DNA from: Pirellula staleyi DSM 6068
GTDB lineage: Bacteria; Planctomycetota; Planctomycetia; Pirellulales; Pirellulaceae
Reading direction: 5' to 3'
Assembly: GCA_945870455.1 (NCBI GenBank)
Contig: CAMBSL010000001.1
Span: 1 to 60,758, forward strand
Length of the DNA stretch: 60,758 nt
The notes under the pieces were generated by a model. That model saw nothing but the letters and a program-made list of their open reading frames with translations. It searched no databases and had not been told where the DNA came from. Made by a program: the position numbers and the translations under genes. Positions within the stretch are counted from its first letter, which is position 1. Each line of letters starts with the position of its first letter. This document shows positions 1 to 53,013 of the stretch, piece by piece.

Positions 1-1260
1 CCGCCCGACGACGCAACTCCCGAAGTGGTGGGGGAGCATTTGAATCGCTTGGCCCAGCGCGCTTGGCGACGGCCTGTGGAGAAGGATGAGTTGGAGGACT
101 ATCTGCAATCCTACCGAGACGAACGCGAGGCGGGCGAAACGATGGCCGATGCTTATCGGATCGCGATGCAGGGTGTGCTGACGTCCAGAAACTTCATCTA
201 TCTCGTCGAGGGTGATCCAGCGGCTCGCGAACGACTCACGGACTGGGAGCTCGGCTCGCGGCTCTCGTACTTCCTATGGAGTTCGATGCCCGACGACGAT
301 CTCTTTACCGCTGCCCAAAATGAAAAGCTCAATGGCGAGGGCCTTGAGAATGAAGTAGATCGAATGTTGAAAGACAGCCGAACCAATCGCTTCATCTATG
401 ACTTTACGCGGCAGTGGCTGCAACTGCACCGCGTGGGCATGTTCCCGCCAGATAAGAAGCTGTACCCTGGCTACGACGACTGGCTTGAGACGAGTATGCG
501 GGCCGAGCCGGTCGAGTATTTCCGCGAGATGTTCGCGAGGAATTTGCCCATCAACGGCTTCCTCGATTCCGAATGGACCATGGCCAACGCTCGGCTCTGT
601 GATTTCTATGGACTGCCGGAGCTGAAGACCGACGGCTTCCAGCGAGTCTCGCTCAAGCCGGAGGACCATCGCGGCGGTCTGCTCACGATGGGCGCGGTGC
701 TCGGGTTGACCTCGGACGGAACGCGCCACCGCCCGGTGCATCGTGGCGTCTGGCTCAGCGAAGCGATCTTCAATAAGACTCCGCCTTCGCCACCGGCCAA
801 TGTGGATCCGATTGAGCCCATTCCGCCTACAGGAACCAAGGTCACGATCCGCAAAAGAATGGAAGCGCACGCCAAGAACGCGAGTTGTGCCGCTTGCCAT
901 CGCAACATCGATCCGCTGGGACTGGCATTTGACCAGTACGATGCCATCGGCCAGTGGCGCACTCGCGAGCAGGTTCAAACGGGTGTCGGTGAGGATCCAT
1001 TGGTGGACGCTTCCGGCGTGATGCCCGACGGCCGTCCGTTCACCCATTCCGTCCAATTCAAACAACTCCTGCTTGAGGACCGCGACAAGATCGCGAGAGC
1101 TTTCATCGAACAACTCTGCACCTACTCCCTCCGCCGCGTGCTGACCGTGGATGACTCGGATAACATCAAGTTGATTGAAGAAGTCGCGAAGAAGAACGAT
1201 TATCGAGTCAAGGACATCGTGCGTGCGGTGGCCTTGTCGGAGCTGATGAGGAAACGCTAG
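1..1260 (+). CDS. DUF1592/DUF1588/DUF1585 planctomycete cytochrome c domain protein, 5'-partial
   Basis: Frame is open from base 1. Motifs [16 protein letters not shown] (DUF1592), RGGLLT..PVHRGVW and CAACH heme motif (DUF1588), C-terminal DUF1585-like helices. Confidence 0.9.
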
Positions 1261-1263
1261 CGC

Positions 1264-1417
1264 TAGTTAATGGTTCTTTGTTCCTAGTTCTTTGTTCACA
1301 GAACGACAGGTACCAGAGCACCAAGCACCAAGCACCAAGAACCAAGAACCAAGAACCAAGCACCAAGCACCAAGCACCAAGAACCAAGAACCAAGAACTA
1401 AAAACTAAAAACTAACA
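1264..1417. repeat. Inverted heptamer-repeat element: left arm (T[AGT]GTTC[TCA])n at 1264-1298, right arm ([AC]ACCAAG/AACTAAA)x14 at 1319-1416
   Basis: Read directly from sequence. The arms are reverse complements and the right arm ends 1 nt before ATG 1418. Confidence 0.95.
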
Positions 1418-1807
1418 ATGCCCATCCGACGCTTTGAAGACATAGAAGGCTGGCAGTTGGCGCGTGAGCTGACGAAGCGAGTCTATGCAGTGGCGATGCG
1501 CGGAGCGTTTGCGAAAGACTTCGGACTACGGGACCAGATTACCCGTGCGTCCGGCTCGACCATGCACAACATCGCGGAAGGATTCGACGGAGGGAGCAAT
1601 GCTGAGTTCGTCAAGTTTCTACGCTACTCGCAGCGTTCATGCTCTGAGATTCAAAGTCAACTCTACATCGCTTTAGATCAGGGCTACATCTCGCAGGATG
1701 AGTTCGACTCCATATACGAACAAGTGGCGAAGACACACGCCAAAGTAGGCGGCTTTATTCGCTACCTATTGAATACCCTCAACCAAGCACCAAGCACTAA
1801 GAACTAA
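1418..1807 (+). CDS. Four-helix-bundle protein (23S rRNA intervening-sequence protein / Avd-like family)
   Basis: Signature FEDIEGWQLAREL...DFGLRDQITRASGSTMHNIAEGF...EFVKFLRYSQRSCSEIQSQLYIALDQGYI. The stop codon lies inside the downstream heptamer array. Confidence 0.92.
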   Translation: MPIRRFEDIEGWQLARELTKRVYAVAMRGAFAKDFGLRDQITRASGSTMHNIAEGFDGGSNAEFVKFLRYSQRSCSEIQSQLYIALDQGYISQDEFDSIYEQVAKTHAKVGGFIRYLLNTLNQAPSTKN

Positions 1808-1847
1808 GAACTAAGAACTAAGAACAAGGAACAAGGAACAAGGAACC
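1781..1847. repeat. Heptamer tandem array (AACCAAG/CACCAAG/CACTAAG/AACTAAG/AACAAGG) x9
   Basis: Read directly. Runs from the 3' end of the four-helix-bundle gene to 4 nt before ATG 1848 and is complementary to the left arm at 1271-1297. Confidence 0.95.
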
Positions 1848-3203
1848 ATGAACTACCCCTCCCAATCCTGGTTGATCGACCGCCGACACGCGCTGCGCGC
1901 TTTGGGGACTTGCGTCTCGCTTCCCATGCTGGAATGCATGACCCCGCTCAGAGCGGCCGAGCAACAGTCCGCCGCGCCTCGGCGCAGCGCATTCATCTAC
2001 CTCGCAAACGGCGTCCATTCGCTGAACTATCAGATCACCAAGCCGGGTAAAGACTATGACTTTTCCCGATCACTCAAGCCTCTGGAAAAGCACCGCCGGG
2101 TCATCACGCCGATCAGCGGTCTGCATCATCCGGGAGCCATCAGCCATCATCACAACTGTATTTCGGTCTGGCTGACCGGTGGAAAACTTGGCCCTTCGGA
2201 TCGCAATACGATCTCCGTCGACCAGAAGATGGCACAAGTCACTGCGGAGCATACGCGATACCCCTCGATGGAGATCGCGCTTACGCAGGGCTCCCTCGCC
2301 TGGACTTCGGATGGGGTCCAACTTCCCGCGTTGCGTCGTTGCAGTGAAATCTTCGCGTCGCTGTTCGAGGAACCTATAGGGGGCATAGCATCCCAGCGGC
2401 GAGCGCTTCGCCGAAAAGCCAGCGTTCTCGATGACAACCTCGCGGAAGTGAGTCGGCTTGAGCAGAAGATGGGAGCTGCCGACAAAGGACGCCTTGACCA
2501 ATACCTCACTTCGGTCCGTGACGCGGAGATCCGTACGCGGCGGGCCGATGCCTGGCTCGACACGCCGCTGCCCGCCATCTCGGAAGCCGACCGCAAACGC
2601 ACCGGCCGCGACATTGCCGCCACGATGGCGGGCGACTATTTCCGGACCGTCTATGACCTCATGGTGCTAGCCTTCCAGACAGATGTGACGCGAGTGGCCA
2701 CGTTCAGTCTGGGAGGCGAGGGGGATGCCTTCGCCATTCCAGAGATCGGCATCACGGAGTCGCGGCATCAGCTCAGTCACCATGGCGGCGACGCCGGCTA
2801 CATCGAGAAGCTCACCAACTACGACACCTTCGCCATCGAACAGTTCAGCTACTTCCTCTCACGACTTGAGGAGACGAAGGACGTCAACGGCCAGCCGCTC
2901 TTGGGCTCCACGATGGCGCTCTTCGGCAGCGGCATGTCCTACGGCCACAGCCACGGTAACGCCAACCTCCCACTAGTGCTCGCTGGCGGTTCGGACCTCG
3001 GCCTCAAGCACGGCAGCCATCTCGACTTCAATCAGGGCCACTTCAACGGATACCAACTCGATAAGCCCGGTGAGCACTACGGGCTCTGCAGTCGCCCCGC
3101 AAACCCGGACGCCCACATGAGCAACTTGCTGCTCCTGATGGCCCAACGCATGGGTGTGGAGACCGACGCATTTGGCGACAGCAATAAGGTGATTGACCTA
3201 TGA
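1848..3203 (+). CDS. DUF1552 (HXXSHH) domain protein
   Basis: Tat-like [34 protein letters not shown]. Usual partner of DUF1592 genes. Confidence 0.92.
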
Positions 3204-4495
3204 AGAAGTTATTTGTACTTGGTTCTTGGTTCTTGGTTTACTCGTTCCTTGTTCAAGCGACCGCCTTTAGCGAGGAACCAAGAACGAAGAACCAAGAACC
3301 AGGAATCGAAGTCTTCCGGCCCGAGGTGGGGAAATTTCCTCCGCTGGAAAAGTCGCTCTCTTATCGAGGCGAACTGGTGTTCGTGGATCATGCCAACCGC
3401 CGCGGCAGCGTCCGCGTGCAAGGAGCGGGGATGTTTTTTCGAAACGATCCCCATCCCTTCGCCATGTTGCCCTACGGCATCATCCGCTATCACGGCGCAC
3501 CAGCGGACCTGCGCGACATCCCGCTCGGCACCGTGATGCATGTCCGAGCCTTCCTCCCGCCGGACCCGAAGACATCCTCTGTGCCGGTATTGCCAATAGA
3601 CAGTAGGACGAAAGACGCGAACCACAACCGTGGACCGGGTATCTTCCCCGCCGAGAACCACGTCCTGCTCCTAGAAGACGAGCCCAGCCACTGCCTTCGC
3701 GAGGGAAAGGTCTGGAAGCTCAAAGAAGTGGACCTCAAAAATTTGCAGGGTACGATCGTCGCCAGCCTCGAACCAAAGCAAGCCGGAGACAGCAAGTCGA
3801 CCGAGGAAAAGATGACCTGTGATGCCGCCACCCGTATCTGGCGAGGTCGCGAAAGCCTCAGCATGGAGGAACTCGTCGCCGAAGGCGCGTGGCCTGCAGA
3901 AGGGAAAAAAACCCTCGGTGGCCAGGCCGTCTTGCTCGGCATCACCTGGAAACCCACACCGGATGGCGTGTTCACCCGGTTCCACATCTCGGACATCTGG
4001 CTGGACGACGACGCAATGCAACGCGCCGCCCGAAATCAAACCGCAGTGCACAAGGCCTTCATCCGTAGCCGTTGGATGCCCGCCTGGATCGACGCCGTCG
4101 AGTATGGCAAGTTCGGTCGCGCGACCGTGATCGCAACTTTGTTCGGTGGCATGGACGCAACGCTTTACGCCGATTTCAAAAAAGATGTCTCCGCCACGAT
4201 GAATGCATCCGAGAACACGTTGAAGCACCTGGGCGGGGATTATGGCCCCGCGCACATGGCATCCAAAGGCCCCATCGTCGAAGTTATCAAGTCGACTGGC
4301 GAAGTGCCTCTGGGAAGCAGTGGCATTCAAATCCGTTTTGAGACAGACCTCATCATCGAAGGCATCCGTCCGGGCAGAGTCGTCCGTGTCTGTCCCGCCA
4401 GTTGGCCCCAGGTCAACGTGCCTCGGGAGGAATTCCTGGGCGATGGTAGCCACGAAGACCGCTTCCCGACCCCGGCCATCTTCCCGAAATACTAA
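3200..4495 (+). CDS. Secreted hypothetical protein; signal peptide partly encoded by a heptamer-repeat element
   Basis: 431-aa ORF with ATGA overlap on the upstream stop. Coding-like composition. Confidence 0.8.
3212..3310. repeat. In-frame inverted heptamer-repeat element ((TTGGTTC)n ... (GAACCAA)n)
   Basis: Left arm about 3212-3255 and right arm about 3273-3310, translated as [14 protein letters not shown] and [11 protein letters not shown]. Confidence 0.9.
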
Positions 4496-4510
4496 TGTAT
4501 CTTCGTGTAT

Positions 4511-4628
4511 CTTCGTTCTTGGTTCCTCGTTCTGAGTTCTTCGTTGCCCAGCAAGACGACGAACATCCAAAATTGGAAACCAAGAACCAAGAACCAAGAA
4601 CTAAGAACTAAGAACTAAGAACTAAAAC
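4511..4628. repeat. Intergenic inverted heptamer-repeat element (same family as 1264-1847)
   Basis: Left arm 4511-4546. Right arm (AACCAAG)3(AACTAAG)3AACTAAA at 4578-4626, 2 nt before ATG 4629. Confidence 0.93.
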
Positions 4629-6335
4629 ATGAAACACATCATCGTACTCCTTGCCGCCCTGCTGTTCGCGCCGCTGGAGGCACACGCCGACGTTCGAGTC
4701 GAAACCGTGATGGTTTCGATGCGAGACGGCGTCAATCTGGCGACCGACATCTATCGTGACGACACGACGAACGTTGCTCCGGTCGTGTTAATGCGAACCC
4801 CTTACAACAAGGTTCTCGCCAAGGGAGCGGCGGAACGGTTCGCGGCCGCAGGTTATGTTGCCGTCGTCCAGGATTGCCGCGGCAAATTTGCGTCGGAAGG
4901 AGTGTTCAGTCCCTACAACAACGAAGGTCAGGATGGATTCGATGCGATTGAGTGGATCGGAAATCAACCATGGTGCAAAGGTCGTATCGGGATGTGGGGC
5001 AGTTCGTACGTCGGTGCGACGCAATGGCAGGCAGCCGTCGAGCATCCACCCAAGCTGATCACGATTGCGCCGTCTGCTACCTGGAGCAGCTTCTACCGCA
5101 ACCTGTATCTGGGCGGGGCCGTGCGGTTATCGTTGATTTCAAGCTGGCTGGCTGGCAACACTCCTAAACCAGAAGGTGTACAACCGTCGGATATGAATGA
5201 AGCGCTCTTGCGGCTACCGCTGAGCGATGTCGATGAGGCGATCGGCTGGACAATGCCATGGCTGGATGCGTACCTCACTCATCCTGAACCAAATGGATTT
5301 TGGAAGCGACTGGATCTGACAGACGAACTGCCCAACTTGAAGATGCCCGCATTGCATTTCGTGGGCTATTACGACTTCTTCTCGCGTGAGTCCGTGGGAA
5401 ATTTCATGATTATGCAGCAGGCTCGCGATCCGCAAACGCGCAAGCAACAACGACTGGTTCTCGGTCCGTGGGATCATGGCACCGTTGGCAAGGCGACAGT
5501 CGCCGAAGTTGATTTCGGTCCTGCTGCTGCAGTAGATACTTTCGCAATTCAAATGGACTGGTTCGATCGCCATCTCAAACAGGATCCCGCCGCGATCGCC
5601 AAGCCGTTTCCGCCCGTGCAATATTTCTCTATGGGGGACAACGTATGGCATGACGCGACGACGTGGCCGCCCGAAGGCTTCTCAGCGACATCGTTCTACC
5701 TTCACTCGGACAGCAAAGCGAACACTCGTAGCGGCGCCGGCAAGTTGAACCGCGAAAAACCTGCTGGCGAAGAACCTGCCGATAGGTTTCAAGCGGATCC
5801 GGCGAATCCTGTGCCAGCCTGCCCGGTCACGGACACGCGTCCGATGAAAGCTGCGGTATGGGGACCGGTTGATCAGAGTGCGCTCGAAGACCGAGACGAC
5901 GTGCTTGTCTATACAAGCGACGTGTTGACTGAGCCGCTCCGCTTTGCCGGCAATGTCGAAGCGAAGCTGTTTGTGAGCGCCGACACTCCGGATGCGGATT
6001 GGGCCGTCAAGCTGGTCGATGTACGACCGGACGGTTTTGCTCAAAATCTTGCCACCGGCATTCTTCGAGGCCGATATCGAGATTCGTTGCTTAAACCATC
6101 GCCTCTGCAACCCGGCAAAGTGTACGAGATCACGGTGGATCTCGGTCCTTGTGCCGCGACGATTGCGAAAGGACATCGACTTCGAGTCGACATTTGCGGT
6201 TCCTTGTTCCCGCTGTACGATCGAAATTCAAACACTGGCGAAGGCCCGTTCGGTGCCAGCACTTTGATCTCGACGGAATCGGTCTATCACTCGTCGTTAA
6301 AAGCGTCTCGGATTGTGCTGCCAGTAAAACAGTAA
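4629..6335 (+). CDS. CocE/NonD family serine hydrolase (peptidase S15-like), secreted
   Basis: MRDGVNLATDIY, RTPY, QDCRGKFASEG, nucleophile elbow GMWGSSYVG, GPWDH, C-terminal PepX_C-like domain, signal peptide. Confidence 0.93.
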   Translation: MKHIIVLLAALLFAPLEAHADVRVETVMVSMRDGVNLATDIYRDDTTNVAPVVLMRTPYNKVLAKGAAERFAAAGYVAVVQDCRGKFASEGVFSPYNNEGQDGFDAIEWIGNQPWCKGRIGMWGSSYVGATQWQAAVEHPPKLITIAPSATWSSFYRNLYLGGAVRLSLISSWLAGNTPKPEGVQPSDMNEALLRLPLSDVDEAIGWTMPWLDAYLTHPEPNGFWKRLDLTDELPNLKMPALHFVGYYDFFSRESVGNFMIMQQARDPQTRKQQRLVLGPWDHGTVGKATVAEVDFGPAAAVDTFAIQMDWFDRHLKQDPAAIAKPFPPVQYFSMGDNVWHDATTWPPEGFSATSFYLHSDSKANTRSGAGKLNREKPAGEEPADRFQADPANPVPACPVTDTRPMKAAVWGPVDQSALEDRDDVLVYTSDVLTEPLRFAGNVEAKLFVSADTPDADWAVKLVDVRPDGFAQNLATGILRGRYRDSLLKPSPLQPGKVYEITVDLGPCAATIAKGHRLRVDICGSLFPLYDRNSNTGEGPFGASTLISTESVYHSSLKASRIVLPVKQ

Positions 6336-6361
6336 ACCGGAGATTCCCAACTCCCATTACT

Positions 6362-6424
6362 TCATCAATCATCAATCATCAATCATCAATCATCAATCAT
6401 CAATCATCAATCATCAATCATCAA
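6362..6424. repeat. Perfect (TCATCAA)x9 tandem repeat
   Basis: Read directly. Same heptamer class as the right arm at 10673-10714. Confidence 0.97.
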
Positions 6425-6427
6425 ACC

Positions 6428-6516
6428 GTAGGATGGCCCTCCCGGGCCGTCGTTCCGTTCAACGACACCACACTTGCACTCCGTGCAATGCCGACGGCCC
6501 GGAAGGGCCGTGCTAC
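6428..6516. repeat. GTAG-class REP doublet (REPIN-like)
   Basis: GTAGGATGGCCCTCCCGGGCCGTC ... GACGGCCCGGAAGGGCCGTGCTAC inverted pair. Confidence 0.88.
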
Positions 6517-9237
6517 GGGGGGACTGTGGTCATTTCTTTGAGCTGTCTATGGCTGATGGCCGTGTGCGTACTATGCTCCGTTACTGCGCCGAGTGTAACT
6601 GCGTCAGACCTGCCTATGCCGATTCGCGAACTGATCCAGCGAACATGTTTCGACTGCCATGACGGCGCATCGGCAGAGGGTGGACTGGACCTCACGTCAC
6701 TGACCTTCGATCTGGCTGACAGACGACTGCGTGAGCGTTGGATTCTGATTCATGATCGTGTCAAGTCAGGTGAGATGCCGCCTGTTGGTTCGAGTCTCAC
6801 AGACGGTGAGCGAAAGTCACTGGTGAAGTCACTGCACGACTTCGTTGCAAAAGCAGACGGTGAGGATGTTGTGGCCAACGGTCGCGGGCCCTTGCGACGA
6901 CTCACACGAGATGAATACGAACAGAATCTGCGGGACGTACTCCAACTTCCACTGCTGGATATTCGCGACATGCTGCCGGAAGATCGTGAGGCCCATCGGT
7001 TCAACAAGACCGCATCCGCACTCGACATGTCACGCGTGCAGTTGGCTGCTTACCTCGATGCCGCCGACGCGGCGTTGCGACAGGCGATGGCTGGCGGACC
7101 GGAGCCGCCACCTGTCACCAGGTATCGCGCGGCAGGGACACAGCTATTTTCGGCCACCAACACTTTTGGTGAACGCGAAGCAATGTTCTTTGCGAAGGAC
7201 AATAAGGGTGTTGAAGCGAAGGAACTCGACAAACTGAAAGACGATCCGGCACTGGAACTCGCGCTGTTTCGGTCAGCTCATTGGCCCTATTTTGGATATC
7301 CTCGCGGCTTCGTTGTTGGCAAGAACGTAGAACGGCCTTTTCAGGCCGTCCTAGAACGTGCAGATAGGACGGCCTGGAAAGGCCGTCCTACGGAATACTT
7401 CGAGTACCGAGTCCGCTTTTCGGCCCGGGCCGTATTGCAGACCGAAGGGTATCAGCTAAAGCCGTCAACCGATCCGGTGCCGATGACGTTTCGCGCGCGA
7501 AAGCCGTCTGGCCCGGATGTCTCTGGCGATGTTCGGGCAACGGGTGGCATCATCGACATTCAGCCCGAGCCCAGAGTTTACGAGACCACCATTCGTTTGC
7601 TACCGACGGAGACATTTGAGTACAGCCTGTTAGGTCTGCCAGTCCCACTGGCTCGCAATGTCAACGGTGGCCCGCCGACATATCGTTATCCGCCGTTTCC
7701 CAATGATGGCCAACCGGGAGTTGCCTTTCAATGGCTGGAAGTTGAAGGACCGATCGGGGCGGAATCATGGCCGCCGCCGTCACACCGCGTTTTGTTTGAT
7801 GACAGTGGGATAGGCTTCCAGCCTGTCGATAATCCGAATAATCCTGACAGGCAGGATGCCTATCCCACGGAAGCCAAACGCCTGCTTCGGCGCTTCGTTG
7901 AGATCGCTGCTCGCGAACCAGTACCGGAAGACGCATTGCTGCGGTTCGAACAACTCATTCTCAAGCGACTCGAGCAGGGAAGCTCGTTCCCAGAGGCGAT
8001 GCTCGTCGGCTATAAGGCCTTCCTGAGCTCCAGCCACTTCCTCTATCTGCGTGAACCCGTAGGACGGCCTTTCCAGGCCGTCGAAAACAACGTGAGTGTA
8101 CGCGACGGCCAGGAATGGCCATCCTACGCCATCGCATCACGGCTATCGCACTTCCTGACGAATACCAGACCCGATGCAACGCTCATGGCACTTGCCGCGG
8201 CCGGAAAACTCCGCGACGCCAAGACGCTCCGCGGCGAAACCGAACGACTGATCGACAGCCCCGGCTTCGATCGCTTCGTTCAGAACTTCACCAACTACTG
8301 GCTCGACCTGCGAAACATCCGCCGCGACGAGCCCGACATTCGGCTGCACCCTGAATATCGCTTCGATGATTACTTGATCGAATCGATGCAGCGCGAGACC
8401 CAGACATTTTTTACTGCGATGATTCGAGACAACCTGCCGTCGAGTGTGTTGATCGATGCGGACTTTGTGTACGCAAATGATCGGCTCGCTCGGCACTACG
8501 GATTGGTACCGGTCATGGGGTCGGAGATGCAAAAGATTGTATTGCCCAATGACAGTCCCTACGGCGGTCTGTTGACGCAGGCGGCTATTCTCAAGGTGAC
8601 CGCCAACGGCACATCGACGTCGCCGGTCATCCGCGGCGCGTGGATCATGGAGCGTTTGATCGGCCAGCCACCCCCGCCTCCGCCAGCGAGCGTCCCTGCT
8701 GTCGAGCCGGACATTCGCGGCGCGAAGACCATACGCGAATTGCTGGCTCTTCATGCTAAATCGGAATCGTGTGCCGGTTGTCATGCAAGGTTTGATCCCG
8801 TTGGTCTGGCATTGGAAAACTTCGACATCCTCGGCGCCTGGCGAACACGCTATCGCGGACTCGAAGCGGGCGAACGCATTACCGGGATAGACCGTGCCGG
8901 CCACGATTTCGCCTATGCACTTGCTGAACCAGTGAACGCCAGCGGTCAACTGCTGGACGGTCGACGCTTTCAAGACATCCACGAACTGAAGGCCATTCTT
9001 GCAGGCAATCCTCGACAATTGGCTCGCAGTCTTCTGCATCAATTCACGCTGTATGCGACCGGAACTCCGGTGCGATTTGCGGATCGTGCCGAAATCGAAT
9101 CGATCCTCGATGGCTGCGAAGCAGATAGCTACCGTGTCCGTGATCTTGTGCATGCATTGGTGCAGGGCAGTATCTTTGTAGGACGGCCTTTCCAGGCAGT
9201 CGAGAATAACACAAGAATTCAAGAATTACACGAATGA
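6433..9237 (+). CDS. PSCyt1/DUF1587/1595/1592/1588/1585 cytochrome c domain protein carrying three in-frame REP doublets; true start probably downstream (about 6526-6557)
   Basis: CFDCH, LRRLTRDEYEQNLRD, AIASRLSHFL, GGLLTQAAILKVTANG..SPVIRGAW, CAGCH. The annotated ATG lies inside a REP. Confidence 0.88.
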   Translation: MALPGRRSVQRHHTCTPCNADGPEGPCYGGTVVISLSCLWLMAVCVLCSVTAPSVTASDLPMPIRELIQRTCFDCHDGASAEGGLDLTSLTFDLADRRLRERWILIHDRVKSGEMPPVGSSLTDGERKSLVKSLHDFVAKADGEDVVANGRGPLRRLTRDEYEQNLRDVLQLPLLDIRDMLPEDREAHRFNKTASALDMSRVQLAAYLDAADAALRQAMAGGPEPPPVTRYRAAGTQLFSATNTFGEREAMFFAKDNKGVEAKELDKLKDDPALELALFRSAHWPYFGYPRGFVVGKNVERPFQAVLERADRTAWKGRPTEYFEYRVRFSARAVLQTEGYQLKPSTDPVPMTFRARKPSGPDVSGDVRATGGIIDIQPEPRVYETTIRLLPTETFEYSLLGLPVPLARNVNGGPPTYRYPPFPNDGQPGVAFQWLEVEGPIGAESWPPPSHRVLFDDSGIGFQPVDNPNNPDRQDAYPTEAKRLLRRFVEIAAREPVPEDALLRFEQLILKRLEQGSSFPEAMLVGYKAFLSSSHFLYLREPVGRPFQAVENNVSVRDGQEWPSYAIASRLSHFLTNTRPDATLMALAAAGKLRDAKTLRGETERLIDSPGFDRFVQNFTNYWLDLRNIRRDEPDIRLHPEYRFDDYLIESMQRETQTFFTAMIRDNLPSSVLIDADFVYANDRLARHYGLVPVMGSEMQKIVLPNDSPYGGLLTQAAILKVTANGTSTSPVIRGAWIMERLIGQPPPPPPASVPAVEPDIRGAKTIRELLALHAKSESCAGCHARFDPVGLALENFDILGAWRTRYRGLEAGERITGIDRAGHDFAYALAEPVNASGQLLDGRRFQDIHELKAILAGNPRQLARSLLHQFTLYATGTPVRFADRAEIESILDGCEADSYRVRDLVHALVQGSIFVGRPFQAVENNTRIQELHE
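7327..7391. repeat. In-frame GTAG REP doublet
   Basis: GTAGAACGGCCTTTTCAGGCCGTC ... GACGGCCTGGAAAGGCCGTCCTAC, translated VERPFQAV...TAWKGRPT. Confidence 0.93.
7805..7868. repeat. In-frame GTGG REP doublet (second family)
   Basis: GTGGGATAGGCTTCCAGCCTGTC ... GACAGGCAGGATGCCTATCCCAC, translated GIGFQPV...DRQDAYPT. Confidence 0.92.
8059..8127. repeat. In-frame GTAG REP doublet
   Basis: GTAGGACGGCCTTTCCAGGCCGTC ... GACGGCCAGGAATGGCCATCCTAC, translated VGRPFQAV...DGQEWPSY. Confidence 0.93.
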
Positions 9238-10565: not shown

Positions 10566-12415
10566 TACACCTCACCGTCGAAAACAGGATTGATGATTGT
10601 CGATTGAGGTTTGCTGATTTCCGAAGTACAGGTGCTCGCTGTGTCGGGCGTTGGCAACTACGGCCCTTGCCCCATCGCCAATCAAAGATCAGAAATCAAC
10701 AATCATCCATCACTCCAACTGCCGCGAATCGGCCCAGGTCTTCCAATTCGTCTCAAAAGACATGTAACTTGATGTTCTTCATCGCCTTGCTGCTTGCACC
10801 GATCGATGTGATTCAGGCTCAAGACGCTATCCCTGGAAATACCGACCGATCCACCATCGCGGCTCTCTTTGCAAAAGGGGCGGACCATGGCGGCACGGTG
10901 ACGATTCCTCCAGGTGACTATTACCTCGACGGTACTGAACCAATTCCGCTGGCTTCACGCACCACCGTGTTTGCGTATGGAACGCGGTTTCATCTGCCTG
11001 AGAAGCTCGGTGATCAGGCTCGGGCGGTTGTCTTCGCTGGTGAGAACGTGAGCGACTTTCGCTGGTTTGGTGGTCACTTTGTCGGACGTGTGTTTGACCC
11101 GGACAGGACAGACAATTCATGGGAACCGAACGCGAACACCCGAGGCATCCTGATCACCACCACTTCCGGCGGCGAAACTGCCAACCTGACCTTTCGCGAT
11201 GTTAGTTCGGATAGCATGGCCGGCGCGGTCATCACGGTTCTAGGCGCTGCGAAGCCGGGCAGTGATCGACAGATCGACACTTATGCCCGCAACGTGACCG
11301 TAGAGAACTGCACGCTTGAGCGCAGTGGCAAGTTCATGTGGGACTACGGTTATCTCTGGCAGATCACCGTCTGGCCAGAAGATTACAACGAAGCCGAACG
11401 GGCGCTCGCCGCGAAATATTTCCCGCCGGAATATATCCGCGGACCGGTTCGAATGAAGCAGGGTGACGACCGCGTCTACTTCGTCAATGCGAAACCCCTC
11501 CCAATGTCGGAGCGAGATTATCGGGGACAGCAATCGCTTTGTTTCTACGATGATGATCTTCCGTCGAACATTGTCAGAGGCCGGCAGTATTTCATTGTGG
11601 CGAGCGAACCTGAATGCATCCGTATTGCGGACCAGCCAGGCGGCACGCCGATCCAGTTCGCCAGCGACTCCGGGGTAAACTCAAAGCTGATGGTTCCGTT
11701 GTTTAATGCTCACCTTGCACTTTACGCGCCGAAGGGAAGCGGACCGGGCAAAGGTGCACTGGACCTTGTTGGCTGCGAGGCTGTGATTGTGCGAGGCTGT
11801 CGGCTCAGCGCGCTCGGCGACACGATGCACATTCAAAAAAGCCAGAACATTGTCTTCAGTGGCAATCACATCACCGGCTCGCGGATGGGTGCGTTTTTTC
11901 TGGCCGAGTACTGTCGCAACGCGGTCGTGACCGGCAACACTGTCGATGGCACCAACGGCTCGCGGGTGATCAGCGTTGAGAAGTCCTGCGAAGATGTGAC
12001 CATCGTTGGCAACACCTTCCGCAATGGCGGCCGGGGTTCGTGGATCAATCAGCCGAGAAACTTTGTGCTGGCGGACAACATCTTTGTCAACAACACGACC
12101 AAGTGCGAACATGACCCGCGTCGCGGACGACGCAGCTTTGTCACCGGCGACTATGAAGAATATGCGGAACTCTATTTCACGACTCACGAACCAAACGGTC
12201 GCTACGGCAACGTCACGGTTCGCGGCAATATCTTCAGCAGCGGCGACAAGGCCTCGCACGCCATCACCTTCGCCCCCGGCGGCGACACGCTGCTCCTGAC
12301 CGACAACATCTTTCGGGGCAAGGTCCGCACCATCGCGCCGGCCACCGGCTGCACGAACGTTACGGTCCGCCAAAACGTGGGCGCGATATTTATGAACGAA
12401 ATGAACTCACCATGA
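10562..12415 (+). CDS. Right-handed parallel beta-helix (pectin-lyase-like) protein; start 10562 (ATGA overlap) or about 10772
   Basis: GGTVTIPPGDY, repeated IVFSGNHI/VVTGNTV/TIVGNTF/VLADNIF PbH1-like strands, signal-like MFFIALLLAPIDVIQA. Confidence 0.82.
   Translation: MIHLTVENRIDDCRLRFADFRSTGARCVGRWQLRPLPHRQSKIRNQQSSITPTAANRPRSSNSSQKTCNLMFFIALLLAPIDVIQAQDAIPGNTDRSTIAALFAKGADHGGTVTIPPGDYYLDGTEPIPLASRTTVFAYGTRFHLPEKLGDQARAVVFAGENVSDFRWFGGHFVGRVFDPDRTDNSWEPNANTRGILITTTSGGETANLTFRDVSSDSMAGAVITVLGAAKPGSDRQIDTYARNVTVENCTLERSGKFMWDYGYLWQITVWPEDYNEAERALAAKYFPPEYIRGPVRMKQGDDRVYFVNAKPLPMSERDYRGQQSLCFYDDDLPSNIVRGRQYFIVASEPECIRIADQPGGTPIQFASDSGVNSKLMVPLFNAHLALYAPKGSGPGKGALDLVGCEAVIVRGCRLSALGDTMHIQKSQNIVFSGNHITGSRMGAFFLAEYCRNAVVTGNTVDGTNGSRVISVEKSCEDVTIVGNTFRNGGRGSWINQPRNFVLADNIFVNNTTKCEHDPRRGRRSFVTGDYEEYAELYFTTHEPNGRYGNVTVRGNIFSSGDKASHAITFAPGGDTLLLTDNIFRGKVRTIAPATGCTNVTVRQNVGAIFMNEMNSP
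10588..10714. repeat. Inverted heptamer-repeat element, GATTGNN/NAATCNN family
   Basis: Left arm GATTGAT GATTGTC GATTGAG GTTTGCT GATTTCC. Right arm CATCGCC AATCAAA GATCAGA AATCAAC AATCATC CATCACT. The frame stays open through it. Confidence 0.82.
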
Positions 12416-49231: not shown

Positions 49232-51741
49232 ATCCGATTTGTACTGCATCGTTCTATCGCCGAGGCATGAGCCTGCTAGCACTCGCCCTGCTGATCATGC
49301 CATCGGCAAATGCTGCAGATGCCGCCGTGGCGCCGTCTGTCACCTCGTTTTTCCAGACGTACTGCATCGGTTGCCATGGGCCAAAGAAGCAGCAGGGTGA
49401 CTTTCGCGTGGATGCACTGAAGATTGCTGCGAACGCCGCTGACGCGGAGAACTGGCAACTGGTGCTCGATAACCTGCAACTCGACGAGATGCCGCCGAAG
49501 GCTGCTAAGCAGCCGAAGCAAGCTGAGGTGGAGCAAGTCACAACTTGGATTCAAAACGAGCTGTCGCGTGCGGCAGCGGCACTTAAAGGGACCGACGGCG
49601 AGGTGGTGCTGCGCCGACTCAACCGCGTGGAGTATGAAAACACAGTCGCTGATCTCTTCGATGTGCATGGCGACTTCACGGCGGGTTTTCCCGAGGACCT
49701 TCGCGACCACGGTTTCGATAACAATGGCGGCGCCTTGATGCTTTCCGCAGCGCAGATGCAGGAATACATGAAGGCCGCCGACTACATCTTGGCTCGCACA
49801 ATCGCGCCTGCCACTCGCCCCGAGACGAAGAGCAAGACCTTCACTCTGCACGATGAAAATCTCCGTGCGATCGATGCTGCTGCGAAGAATCTCGCCATGC
49901 GACTGGCAAAGTTCGACAGCCTGACACCGCAAGAACAAGCCAATACTCTCAAAACCGAGGAAGCTGCCAAGGCCAATCCCGACTCTCACGGTTATCGCTT
50001 TCCGGTGCTGGAAGATGGAGTGTTGCGCCCACCCAAGCCTTCCGATGGCCAGCATCTCGATGCTGTCATGACCGTGCAGCAGTACTTCAGCGGTCAACCT
50101 CAAAGTCACAGACACTTCAATCTCAGCCGTCCTGGCTGGTATCGCGTGAAAGCGGTGGCTTACGCGCTCAAGAATGACGGCAAGCCGGTACGCCTGAGGT
50201 TCAGCGCAGGACGGCCAGTGCCCGGCGTGCTGCCGAAAGTCGAGAGCGCATTCTCCTTTACTGACGATCAGCCGCGCGAGGTCGGAGCCAATTACTACCT
50301 GGAACCCGGTGACCGCGTGGAGTTCACGATCATGGACGGCGCGCCGCACAGTCAGGGCCGGTCGATGATTGACCAGCCGGGGCCGTTCATCGCGATCCGT
50401 TCCTTCAGCATCGAAGGGCCGGTGTATGAAAGCTGGCCGCCGAAGGGACATCGCACTTTGTTTGGCGACATCGATCCAAAGCAGCCGACGCCCGAGAAAG
50501 CGGCCGCCATCGCCGCCCATCTCGCGCCGAAGCTCTTTCGAAGACCTGTGGATGATCTCGCTATAGAGAAGTACCGAGCGCTGTTTGAGAAGTTCACGAA
50601 GGCGATGACGCCAGACGAGGCGCTGCGCAGCATGTTGGCCGCGATGCTGGTCTCGCCCCGTTTTCTCTATCACGAAGAACCGCCCAGCGGTCCCGACGCC
50701 TTCGCCATTGCATCGAGGATGTCTTGCTTTCTGTGGCGTTCCACGCCAGATGACGAACTGCTGACGGCTGCGGCGGATGGCAGCTTGCTCGATGCCACGA
50801 AACGGCGCACGCAGGCCGAACGTATGTTGGCAGATAGCCGCACCGAACGCTTTTTGAACGACTTCACCGGCCAATGGCTGCGCGTGCGCGAAGTCGGCCT
50901 GATGAAGGCGAACGCGGAGCTCTATCCGGAATACGATGCTGAACTTGAAGCGGCCATGCGAGCTGAGACAGAGCACTTCATTGTTGAGATGTTCCAGCGG
51001 GACCTGCCGCTCTCGAATCTCATCGACTCCGACTGGACCATGCTCAATGAGCGTCTCGCAAAACACTACCGCATCGATGGCGTGGTTGGACCTGATTTCC
51101 GATGTGTGAATCTGGACAAGTCGAAGACAGTGCGCGGCGGATTGTTGACTCATGCCAGCATTCACGCGGTCACCTCAAACGGCAGCACAACTTCGCCCGT
51201 AATTCGCGGCACCTGGTTACTCGAAAAGTTCCTTGGCACTCCCGCGTCGCCTCCACCACCGGACGTGCCTACCATCGAACCGGATATTCGCGGTGCCACT
51301 ACGATCAAGGAGCAACTCGCCAAACATCGCGACATCGCCAGTTGCGCCTCGTGCCACCGGAAAATCGACCCGCCTGGATTCGCTCTGGAGAACTTCGATG
51401 TCATCGGTGGCTGGCGGGATCACTACCGAGCACTCATTGAGCCGAAGCCCGGTGCTCGCGTTAAACTTACCGACGGGCCGCCCGTCGATCCTGCAGAGGA
51501 ATGGGAAGGCGTAGGGCGTTTTGGCAGCTTCCATGAGTTCCGTGAATTGGTGAAGAAGCGGGAGGATCTTGTCGTGCAAAATCTGACGCACCAGCTTGCC
51601 ACCTTTGCCCTCGGCCGTGTGCCTGGATTCGCCGACCGCCAACCACTCAACAAAATTGCGACCCAAGTCCGCGAGAAAAAGAGCGGAATGAAGTCGCTCG
51701 TACTGGATCTCGTTTCCAGTCCCGTTTTTACCAATCCATAA
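49228..51741 (+). CDS. PSCyt1/DUF1587/1595/1592/1588/1585 cytochrome c domain protein
   Basis: CIGCH, LRRLNRVEYENT, AIASRMSCFLW, RGGLLTHAS..SPVIRGTW, CASCH. GAGGA upstream of ATG 49228. Confidence 0.92.
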   Translation: MNPICTASFYRRGMSLLALALLIMPSANAADAAVAPSVTSFFQTYCIGCHGPKKQQGDFRVDALKIAANAADAENWQLVLDNLQLDEMPPKAAKQPKQAEVEQVTTWIQNELSRAAAALKGTDGEVVLRRLNRVEYENTVADLFDVHGDFTAGFPEDLRDHGFDNNGGALMLSAAQMQEYMKAADYILARTIAPATRPETKSKTFTLHDENLRAIDAAAKNLAMRLAKFDSLTPQEQANTLKTEEAAKANPDSHGYRFPVLEDGVLRPPKPSDGQHLDAVMTVQQYFSGQPQSHRHFNLSRPGWYRVKAVAYALKNDGKPVRLRFSAGRPVPGVLPKVESAFSFTDDQPREVGANYYLEPGDRVEFTIMDGAPHSQGRSMIDQPGPFIAIRSFSIEGPVYESWPPKGHRTLFGDIDPKQPTPEKAAAIAAHLAPKLFRRPVDDLAIEKYRALFEKFTKAMTPDEALRSMLAAMLVSPRFLYHEEPPSGPDAFAIASRMSCFLWRSTPDDELLTAAADGSLLDATKRRTQAERMLADSRTERFLNDFTGQWLRVREVGLMKANAELYPEYDAELEAAMRAETEHFIVEMFQRDLPLSNLIDSDWTMLNERLAKHYRIDGVVGPDFRCVNLDKSKTVRGGLLTHASIHAVTSNGSTTSPVIRGTWLLEKFLGTPASPPPPDVPTIEPDIRGATTIKEQLAKHRDIASCASCHRKIDPPGFALENFDVIGGWRDHYRALIEPKPGARVKLTDGPPVDPAEEWEGVGRFGSFHEFRELVKKREDLVVQNLTHQLATFALGRVPGFADRQPLNKIATQVREKKSGMKSLVLDLVSSPVFTNP

Positions 51742-51759
51742 ACCGACCACAACACACTC

Positions 51760-53013
51760 ATGAACACTCAACCAGCACTCGCCAACCGCCGTACTTTTCT
51801 TTGTGGAACAGGTGTTACTCTAGGTTTGCCATGGCTCGAATCGCTCGGCGGCATCGCCCATGCTGCGGAGGCTGGCAAGGAACCTCGCCGATTGTTGCTC
51901 ATTTGCCTGCCACTGGGCATTTTCCGGGATTCGTTCATTCCGAAGCTATCTGGATCAGATTACGAGCTCACCGAGTATCTCAGCCCGCTGGCCGATCTCC
52001 GCGATCGCTTTACCATCATCTCCGGTCTCGAACATCCGGGCGTCAGCGGTGGTCACGCGGCGCAGGCGCGCATCTTCACCGGTATCCCGTCAGCGGAGAG
52101 AAACCGCCGCTCACTTGACCAGTATGTCGCCGCCTCGCTCGGCCAGCACACGCGTTTTGACTCGCTCGCGTTGAGCGCCGGGGCCAACGACTTTGGCTGG
52201 ACCGACGGCGGCAGCATGGTGCCAGCGGAAAAAAGTATCGGCGATGCCTTCGCCAGGCTCTATGCCGAGGAGGGCGCGGCGAACAAGGCCAAGGTTCTGG
52301 GCGAGATCGGTCGCGGCAAGAGCATCCTCGATCATGTGCTGGATGAGGCTCACGACTTGGAGAGTCGACTTTCCAAACGCGACCGCGAGAAACTCGGTGA
52401 ATACTTTGAAACGGTCCGCGCCACCGAGAAACGCCTCGCCAAATCCGAGGAATGGATTCACCAACCGAAGCCTCAAGTGAACTCAAAACCGCCCGCTCCC
52501 TTCGCTCCAGACGAGATCATCACCAACCTGCGCGGCGTTTGCGACCTGACCCATCTCGCCTTCAAGACCGACAGCACGCGCGTCATCACCTTTGGTTACT
52601 TCCGCCAGGACACTGTTACCGTGCCCGGCGTGAATGTCGGCTATCACAACCTCTCGCACCACGGCCAGGACGAAGGGAACATCGCGCAGCTCAAACGCGT
52701 CGAACGCGCATTCTTTGACGAGCTCAAAACGCTGCTGACAAATCTGAAGAGCACGCGTGAGGGAGACTCGACGTTACTGGACCGCACCACGATCCTCGTC
52801 ACTTCGAATCTCGGTAGCGGCAACAGCCACAGCAACAAAGACCTGCCCGTGCTGCTAGCTGGAGGCCGCTTCCAACACGGCGAACACCTGAACTTCGCCC
52901 CAGGTACGGTGCCCTTGAGCAATCTCTATGTCAGCGTGCTGAACCAACTCGGTTTTGAAGACCAATCCTTCGGCACTTCGACTGGAACGTTGCAAGGGCT
53001 AACGGTCGCCTGA
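51760..53013 (+). CDS. DUF1552 (HXXSHH) domain protein
   Basis: NRRTFLCGTGVTLGLPWLES, YHNLSHHG, HSNKDLPVLLAGG. Confidence 0.92.
   Translation: MNTQPALANRRTFLCGTGVTLGLPWLESLGGIAHAAEAGKEPRRLLLICLPLGIFRDSFIPKLSGSDYELTEYLSPLADLRDRFTIISGLEHPGVSGGHAAQARIFTGIPSAERNRRSLDQYVAASLGQHTRFDSLALSAGANDFGWTDGGSMVPAEKSIGDAFARLYAEEGAANKAKVLGEIGRGKSILDHVLDEAHDLESRLSKRDREKLGEYFETVRATEKRLAKSEEWIHQPKPQVNSKPPAPFAPDEIITNLRGVCDLTHLAFKTDSTRVITFGYFRQDTVTVPGVNVGYHNLSHHGQDEGNIAQLKRVERAFFDELKTLLTNLKSTREGDSTLLDRTTILVTSNLGSGNSHSNKDLPVLLAGGRFQHGEHLNFAPGTVPLSNLYVSVLNQLGFEDQSFGTSTGTLQGLTVA

Follow-up and report, generated by a model that had tools for sequence, protein, structure and literature searches.

Why should a gene for a small four-helix-bundle protein lie between two genes that elsewhere are immediate neighbours? 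This is the question raised by the first operon of the stretch of DNA analysed here, 60,758 nt of Pirellula staleyi DSM 6068 that we refer to as the window. The two other DUF1592/DUF1552 pairs in the window are adjacent, as the sequence-only reading of this DNA had pointed out, one overlapping at 9234 and the other with a stop at 51741 and a start at 51760. Here the DUF1592 stop lies at 1260 and the DUF1552 start at 1848, leaving a 587-nt spacer (1261-1847) that had been estimated at about 585 bp. The parts of this unit and its host genes are as follows.

1..1260, forward strand: upstream host gene, DUF1592/DUF1588/DUF1595/DUF1585 protein, 5' end outside the window
1271..1297, forward strand: left arm L, about four G/T-rich heptamers, complementary to both arrays R' and R
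1312..1416, forward strand: internal array R', 15 A/C-rich heptamers of the AACCAAG type, ending immediately 5' of the ORF start
1418..1807, forward strand: four-helix-bundle gene, 129 aa, PF05635/TIGR02436
1781..1847, forward strand: right array R, about 9.5 heptamers, a direct repeat of R'
1848..3203, forward strand: downstream host gene, DUF1552 (PF07586)

The left arm begins 10 nt past the DUF1592 stop. The right array starts within the last codons of the ORF, includes its stop and ends at the DUF1552 start, and has an AAGGA word where empty alleles of the operon show a CAAGGAG ribosome-binding site. The best arm pair covers 39 nt at 85% complementarity, with L at 1271-1297 pairing with 1822-1848. 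The ORF is indeed enclosed by inverted arms, as first described, but the direct arrays R' and R bracket it as well, and direct repeats around an ORF bear on the route by which the gene can be lost. The GC content of the ORF is 52%, against 58-61% in the neighbouring genes. Neither a sigma-70 promoter-like site nor a sense-strand terminator was found in 1100-2000, and Rfam gave no match at gathering level on 1000-6600, where all microRNA hairpin hits were sub-threshold.

The assignment of the protein to the four-helix-bundle family was borne out by profile search, with 104 bits to PF05635 (cut-off 33.8) and 99.8 bits to TIGR02436 (cut-off 24); PF05635 was the only match of the ORF in that search, and no transposase was found in the unit. 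The structure model (pLDDT 93) is Xcc0516-like, with a TM score of 0.82 and an rmsd of 1.4 to Xcc0516 (2GSC), followed by BT_0352 (2RLD, TM 0.75) and the accessory protein Avd (4DWL, TM 0.71, 12% identity). A ring like that of Xcc0516 is predicted, probably a pentamer by analogy with 2GSC. With 15 K+R against 15 D+E and a pI of about 6.7 the protein as a whole is not basic, which counts against a simple parallel with Avd. It showed no catalytic or recombinase motif, and nuclease families and folds are absent from its profile and structure matches. PADLOC returned no family for the window protein and two weak single hits among 30 members, and PHROGs gave no match for it; a relative of the type called 3 below matches the PHROG for Avd. 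A HEPN-like reading of an RxxxxxxH stretch was dropped, the histidine being missing in types 2 and 3 and the HEPN fold being absent among the listed structure matches.

Orthologous operons, where empty sites had been suggested as a check, reveal that the unit comes and goes. Of 93 loci around DUF1552 relatives, we left out 9 that lacked the end of the upstream gene, 3 that were duplicates and 3 paralogues of less than 65% identity; 78 distinct orthologous DUF1592-DUF1552 junctions remained. Short spacers of at most 50 nt, often with a CAAGGAG ribosome-binding site, are found at 22 of them, an intact family gene at 17 (7 of type 1, including the window, 8 of type 2 and 2 of type 3), gene remnants at 6, heptamer runs without a family gene at 9 and other content at 24. 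The types share 12-31% identity with one another and differ in arm sequence; three unrelated subfamilies alternate in the slot, and arm type follows protein subfamily. They are scattered and interleaved on the DUF1552 tree, a quick tree with starred branches from which no direction of change is claimed, and at least four changes are forced for type 1 and likewise for type 2. Among the operon relatives nearest to that of the window, type 1 is present in three (94-96%); others have a short palindrome (95%), type 2 (93% and 90%), a transposase (91%) or type 3 (90%) in the slot. Array length and units differ even between alleles that are 95% identical.

Intermediate alleles are also found in the slot. 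L070, L073 and L085 have L-R alleles without the ORF, the form expected from deletion between R' and R, so that protein-less versions of the element, which had been proposed for the window, exist at this junction in relatives too; L049 has an apparent collapsed type-2 hairpin allele. In L005 and L017 the slot is taken by Y1 transposase-like (Y1_Tnp-like) genes that are flanked by palindromes. L040 has an apparent Y1 transposase-like fragment there, also with palindromic flanks and with no Pfam match. The empty alleles are 84-88% identical in DUF1552 protein, their spacers are too diverged to align, and no target-site duplication was seen by eye. Three cassettes that are 71-76% identical to that of the window lie in the same slot of an operon family that is only 48-51% identical.

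Does the unit act through its RNA? As proposed from the sequence, the minimum-energy fold closes the unit through an L-R stem with the ORF looped out (-170.6 kcal/mol, z -4.6, 0 of 20 shuffles as good), and the alternative pairing with the array at 1319-1416, which holds 14 units there and 15 when counted from 1312, also folds as a competing local L-R' stem (-28.8 kcal/mol, z -3.9). The unit could be an mRNA intervening sequence, its L-R stem a selected RNase III site through which the unit is excised and the two host messages are separated or tuned. The long stem is the predicted fold, with a distal pairing probability of 0.82, its size resembles the 28-bp Coxiella intervening sequence (IVS) stem cut by RNase III (PMC4990558), an RNase III gene is present in the genome, and flank-flank complementarity lies above the 99th percentile of controls at 72 of 85 homologous loci (best 80 of 547 plus 8). 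However, exchanging the arrays between loci does not weaken the pairing of an arm (p 0.86 for the distal array, 0.83 for the internal one), and G-U pairs show no excess over A-C mismatches (33 vs 28 with the distal array, 43 vs 28 with the internal one). In 29 slot cassettes the predicted partner of L is the distal array R in 18 and the internal array R' in 11; R', transcribed about 400 nt sooner, likely pairs first. Moreover, the 22 of 78 alleles with spacers of at most 50 nt keep the operon. We therefore consider excision through a selected stem unlikely, and this part of the sequence-only reading is not upheld. The cassettes conserve the type of repeat and its polarity, rather than one given helix. 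RNase III may cut either stem as a side effect, with no rejoining. One metatranscriptome (0.05 word share) yielded four contigs, with none over the ORF body and no joints. Two joints from a DNA run, 1289-1781 and 1415-1798, have sides of less than 30 nt within repeats and were not counted as evidence.

The relatives of the gene indicate how faithful it is to this slot. Among 88 homologous loci, the best 80 of 547 from metagenomes plus 8 from genomes, 33 of the 36 homologues with at least 70% identity lie at this same DUF1592-DUF1552 junction, against 1 of 38 at 60-70% and none of 14 below 60%; these slot-fidelity figures come from the best 80 of 547, which are non-independent loci. In the same set (best 80 of 547 plus 8) the slot lineage has the L-R'-ORF-R form in 27 of 36 cases, whereas the non-slot homologues have plain L-ORF-R in 22 of 52 and L-R'-ORF-R in 5 of 52. 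The ground plan of the family is thus left arm, ORF, right arm, while the window lineage is L-R'-ORF-R and has long been in the slot. Non-slot loci have a co-oriented upstream neighbour in 31 of 37 cases vs 826 of 1315 background genes, and the more distant type-1 relatives lie at many unrelated junctions with a shared arm type.

A test of co-occurrence between gene and heptamers, also suggested from the sequence, puts the association beyond chance: period-7 runs stand on both flanks at 52 of 85 homologous loci (best 80 of 547 plus 8) vs 5 of 3723 control genome ORFs. The heptamer units of two loci differ by at most one mismatch in 63-86% of pairs whose proteins are more than 60% identical and in 0-2% of those under 50%, and polarity is kept, with an A/C-rich downstream unit in 75 of 87 (both for the best 80 of 547 plus 8). 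Homologous loci share kinship, so these counts overstate independence, and arm-protein matching can arise from common ancestry alone. Nevertheless, they largely refute the idea of an ordinary accessory gene in a slippage-prone operon whose arrays are neutral simple repeats, associated with the gene incidentally. About 50 heptamer arrays in the genome, nearly all without the gene, and the variation of array length and units between 95%-identical alleles are in line with that idea, but the both-flank counts, the tracking of subfamily by arm type, the kept polarity and the array flanks of both intact family genes in the genome leave it highly improbable.

Within the genome, the two intact genes of the PF05635 family are flanked by heptamer arrays of different types. 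The type-1 gene is a single copy, and of the 13 detected DUF1592/DUF1552 junctions only the one at 1261-1847 holds a gene of the family. The genome has 50 arrays of period 7, nearly all of them lacking a family gene, against 38 with period 6 and 6 with period 8. The AACCAAG-type array pattern was observed in 31 runs, with 9-16 chance runs in shuffles; L-R hairpins of this type were found three times, all within this operon, and its orphan arrays between co-oriented genes are 8 right-type vs 1 left-type. Across the genus the family is above cut-off in 36 of 41 genomes, with up to 18 matches each and many copies broken. We note a few further arrays. The second cassette of the genome (G000 C138:5680-6640) carries a longer four-helix-bundle gene, on either side of which lie TTTGAGA-type arrays and self-complementary runs. 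In the window, nine perfect TCATCAA units at 6362-6424 stand between a peptidase gene and the DUF1592 gene that follows, and 10680-10705 holds a short degenerate heptamer run of another type.

Arrays run up to start codons both here and at other places in the genome, which suggests a second role that the unit might have, as a translation regulator useful to the host. A ring protein would bind heptamer RNA, as TRAP binds its RNA repeats, and decide whether L pairs with R' or with R; in this way it would control its own start and the starts of genes preceded by such arrays. The excess of right-type orphans, two folds of similar stability and the strong purifying selection on the ORF described below are consistent with this, and the TAACTGA repeats likewise precede start codons, with a repeat-binding protein proposed (PMC4679880). 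On the other hand, gene and arm type are swapped or lost at the slot among close relatives, the genome has many heptamer types but only two intact family genes, many family copies in the genus are broken, and the pI of the protein is near neutral. Taken together, we find such a regulator improbable.

The operon itself carries two smaller relatives of the unit, which had been described as protein-less copies at 3212 and 4511.

3214..3305, forward strand: protein-less L-R hairpin within the first codons of gene 3200-4495, translated
4510..4627, forward strand: protein-less L-R hairpin between gene 3200-4495 and the S15 peptidase gene, ending at the peptidase start codon

Both fold strongly (z -6.8 and -5.7), in support of that description, which needs correction in one respect: the first copy is translated inside the start of a gene. 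Its L arm reads as the hydrophobic core of a likely signal peptide, so that repeat DNA has likely been recruited into coding sequence. The same reading of the L arm is seen in the window and in L014, L057, L062, L073, L080 and L085, while the counterparts in L004, L024 and L081 have an N-terminus unrelated to the L-arm version. Gene 3200-4495 (431 aa) had no matches in Pfam, NCBIfam or PHROG; it directly follows DUF1552 and is kept in most orthologous operons. At this next junction, after DUF1552, L037, L046, L049 and L087 have a fourth four-helix-bundle subfamily with 6-nt repeat arms, and L011, L016, L020, L021, L058, L059 and L063 have type-2 arm-only hairpins.

Is the unit a mobile element, as the sequence-only reading supposed? 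An autonomous or reverse transcriptase-assisted element, whose protein packages the arm-bounded RNA as Avd does in diversity-generating retroelements (DGRs) and which inserts at new stop-start junctions, would agree with the fold match to Avd (TM 0.71 to 4DWL), with the defined RNA site bound by Avd (PMC6182149) and with the distant type-1 relatives of shared arm type at many unrelated junctions. Other subfamilies show near-identical copies at several sites per genome, and there are three reverse-transcriptase matches in this genome. These three, however, are all on other contigs, with none on this one; the multi-copy cases use other vehicles (attC-like ends or larger shared units); and the type-1 gene is single-copy, with nearly all of its close relatives at one slot (best 80 of 547 plus 8). 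Such an element is hence even less probable than excision or regulation. Turnover at the junction is real, so mobility stands in that sense, but not as spread through the genome: the window lineage is a long-term single-slot resident that moves mainly between alleles of one operon.

Several arm-flanked genes outside this lineage deserve mention in their own right. L225, L227 and L229 (G326) and L210 have 6-nt arms and, at their ends, a long imperfect palindrome, which we take to resemble an integron attC site; the copies at three sites of a single genome are 97-98% identical. Another subfamily (L213, L214, L218-L220 and L224, in G009, G011 and G021) has several near-identical copies per genome, each following a long hairpin, and some are tandem hairpin-plus-ORF units. 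In L186, L188, L221 and L223 (G021, G011), arm-flanked four-helix-bundle genes adjoin tRNA-like sequences on the opposite strand, as judged by eye. GxxExxY genes with repeat arms of about 9 nt, in inverted plus direct layout (L233-L235, in G000 C24, C27 and C300), have the same design as the four-helix-bundle cassette with another cargo.

How the gene moves between alleles can be read from its divergence. The ORF has a median dN/dS of 0.093 over 186 pairs, similar to the host gene and indicative of purifying selection, and its distances track those of DUF1552 (Mantel rho 0.67); the gene is therefore functional and a long resident. Against this background some pairs have an ORF younger than its surroundings. 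L120 and L129 differ at 1 of 50 four-fold sites in the ORF vs 100 of 297 in the flanks (p 3e-7), the type-3 pair L011/L020 at 0.22 in the ORF vs 0.48 in the flanks (p 0.001), and the window differs from L014, L015 and L058 at 6-8% of third positions in the ORF vs 16-21% in the flanks (p about 0.002), the last three comparisons being mutually non-independent. An ORF younger than both flanks in three lineages points to exchange between operon alleles by recombination. The low-divergence tracts are patchy, mostly in the 3' part of the ORF, with edges that are not clean at the arms, and in L014 the host genes reach the conservation of the ORF in 4 of 80 windows. At deeper distances ORF and flank rates are about equal, and the close pair L126/L131 runs in the reverse direction (0.40 vs 0.23, p 0.014). 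A sweep of a host-beneficial gene would give an identical signature.

Based on these observations we propose, with about an even chance of being right, that the unit is an IVS-type, repeat-armed passenger cassette that is faithful to its slot and is swapped between operon alleles by homologous recombination, by neither transposition nor splicing. The cassette would be read from the transcript of the host operon, as suggested by its orientation on the same strand and by the negative search for a sigma-70-type promoter. The ORF would enter with recombination tracts whose anchors are the conserved host genes or the arrays, and under such homing-like exchange even a dispensable gene would stay under selection. 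Loss would occur by deletion between the direct arrays, with an L-R hairpin remaining, or by hairpin collapse. The right array could then be retained because the next gene has come to use it for translation initiation, and this would account for the orphan arrays that lie directly next to start codons. Finally, the protein may recognise the repeat type of its own cassette, as RNA or single-stranded DNA, and thereby help the cassette to persist or spread. This is the weakest step, suggested by arm-protein matching and by analogy with Avd, and we advance it tentatively, at somewhat worse than even chances. More speculative still, and rather doubtful, is a general version of the proposal: PF05635 genes might be the cargo of widespread, undescribed selfish cassettes, each subfamily recognising its own 6-7-nt arms and driving a homing-like takeover of stop-start junctions without a known nuclease or recombinase, with rRNA intervening sequences as one habitat and decayed arms as a main source of the heptamers before bacterial start codons.

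The slot matters beyond this operon. PF05635 is very common in the genus and has solved structures but no known function, and the origins of ORF-bearing rRNA intervening sequences (PMC4990558) and of intergenic heptamer repeats (PMC4679880) are described as open questions. The slot joins the three and makes them testable, as it constitutes a natural allele series of empty, arm-only, decayed and three alternative filled states that includes cultured Stieleria strains, among them S. mannarensis JC639 (L029) with the type-1 gene and S. magnilauensis TBK1r (L023) with arms alone. It predicts strict specificity in binding, each protein type recognising no repeat type but its own.

Of the known systems, the closest is the IVS in helix 45 of the Coxiella burnetii 23S rRNA, which has a 28-bp terminal stem, is excised by RNase III and carries tandem heptamers ahead of its S23p ORF, long ago suggested to have served mobility (PMC4990558). 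Both units have the same protein family in sense orientation, terminal inverted repeats with a stem of about 27-28 bp, variable-copy tandem heptamers just 5' of the ORF and a patchy distribution. As in 23S intervening sequences, the ORF of the window unit lies in the loop between terminal inverted repeats (in a predicted fold with which a local stem competes) and is sporadically present at a conserved site (17 of 78 junctions intact). In contrast to the Coxiella IVS, the window unit lies between protein-coding genes, DUF1592 and DUF1552, instead of in rRNA, its arms consist of heptamer arrays, the ORF is followed by a second direct array, and it is under strong purifying selection, whereas that of Coxiella is reported to be decaying (PMC4990558). 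Excision by RNase III belongs to the Coxiella IVS, while the window unit is known from its sequence and predicted fold. It is thus IVS-like in layout yet not an IVS, being outside rRNA and with excision hypothetical.

At the protein level, the four-helix fold is common to Avd, Xcc0516, BT_0352 and the window protein, and PF05635 has been linked to Avd (PMC10053308). Avd forms a basic pentamer and has a defined RNA element as its binding site (PMC6182149; bioRxiv 10.1101/2023.10.23.563531), and its highly basic barrel (PMC6182149) differs from the window protein with its pI of 6.7 and no reverse-transcriptase match on the contig. As for the arrays, TAACTGA-type heptamer direct repeats in Beggiatoaceae, Cyanobacteria and Bacteroidetes form similar forward runs that end a few bases 5' of operon start codons, and a mobile repeat-binding protein was suggested for them (PMC4679880). 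The main text of that paper, by the terms searched, names no four-helix-bundle gene and has a single inverted set, while inverted arms and a cargo gene are integral to the window unit. Heptanucleotide elements are likewise listed without a four-helix-bundle gene in the accessible part of PMC2700814. No published work on such cassettes in protein operons was found in a search mostly of literature outside subscription journals; the 23S rRNA layout is already published.

The unit does not resemble an insertion sequence or a MITE, having no transposase and no near-identical copies at unrelated sites (best 80 of 547 plus 8). It is more like REP/RAYT systems, whose palindromic arms enclose a gene placed in an intergenic slot and also occur scattered without a protein. 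The RAYT tyrosine transposase is an HUH nuclease, whereas the window unit encodes a four-helix bundle with no known catalytic motif between arms of tandem heptamers. Homing endonuclease genes, for their part, pass through a cycle of gain, decay and loss. The window unit has no nuclease family match and no self-splicing host element, but shares with them its site fidelity, its exchange between alleles, its remnants and the purifying selection on a dispensable ORF.
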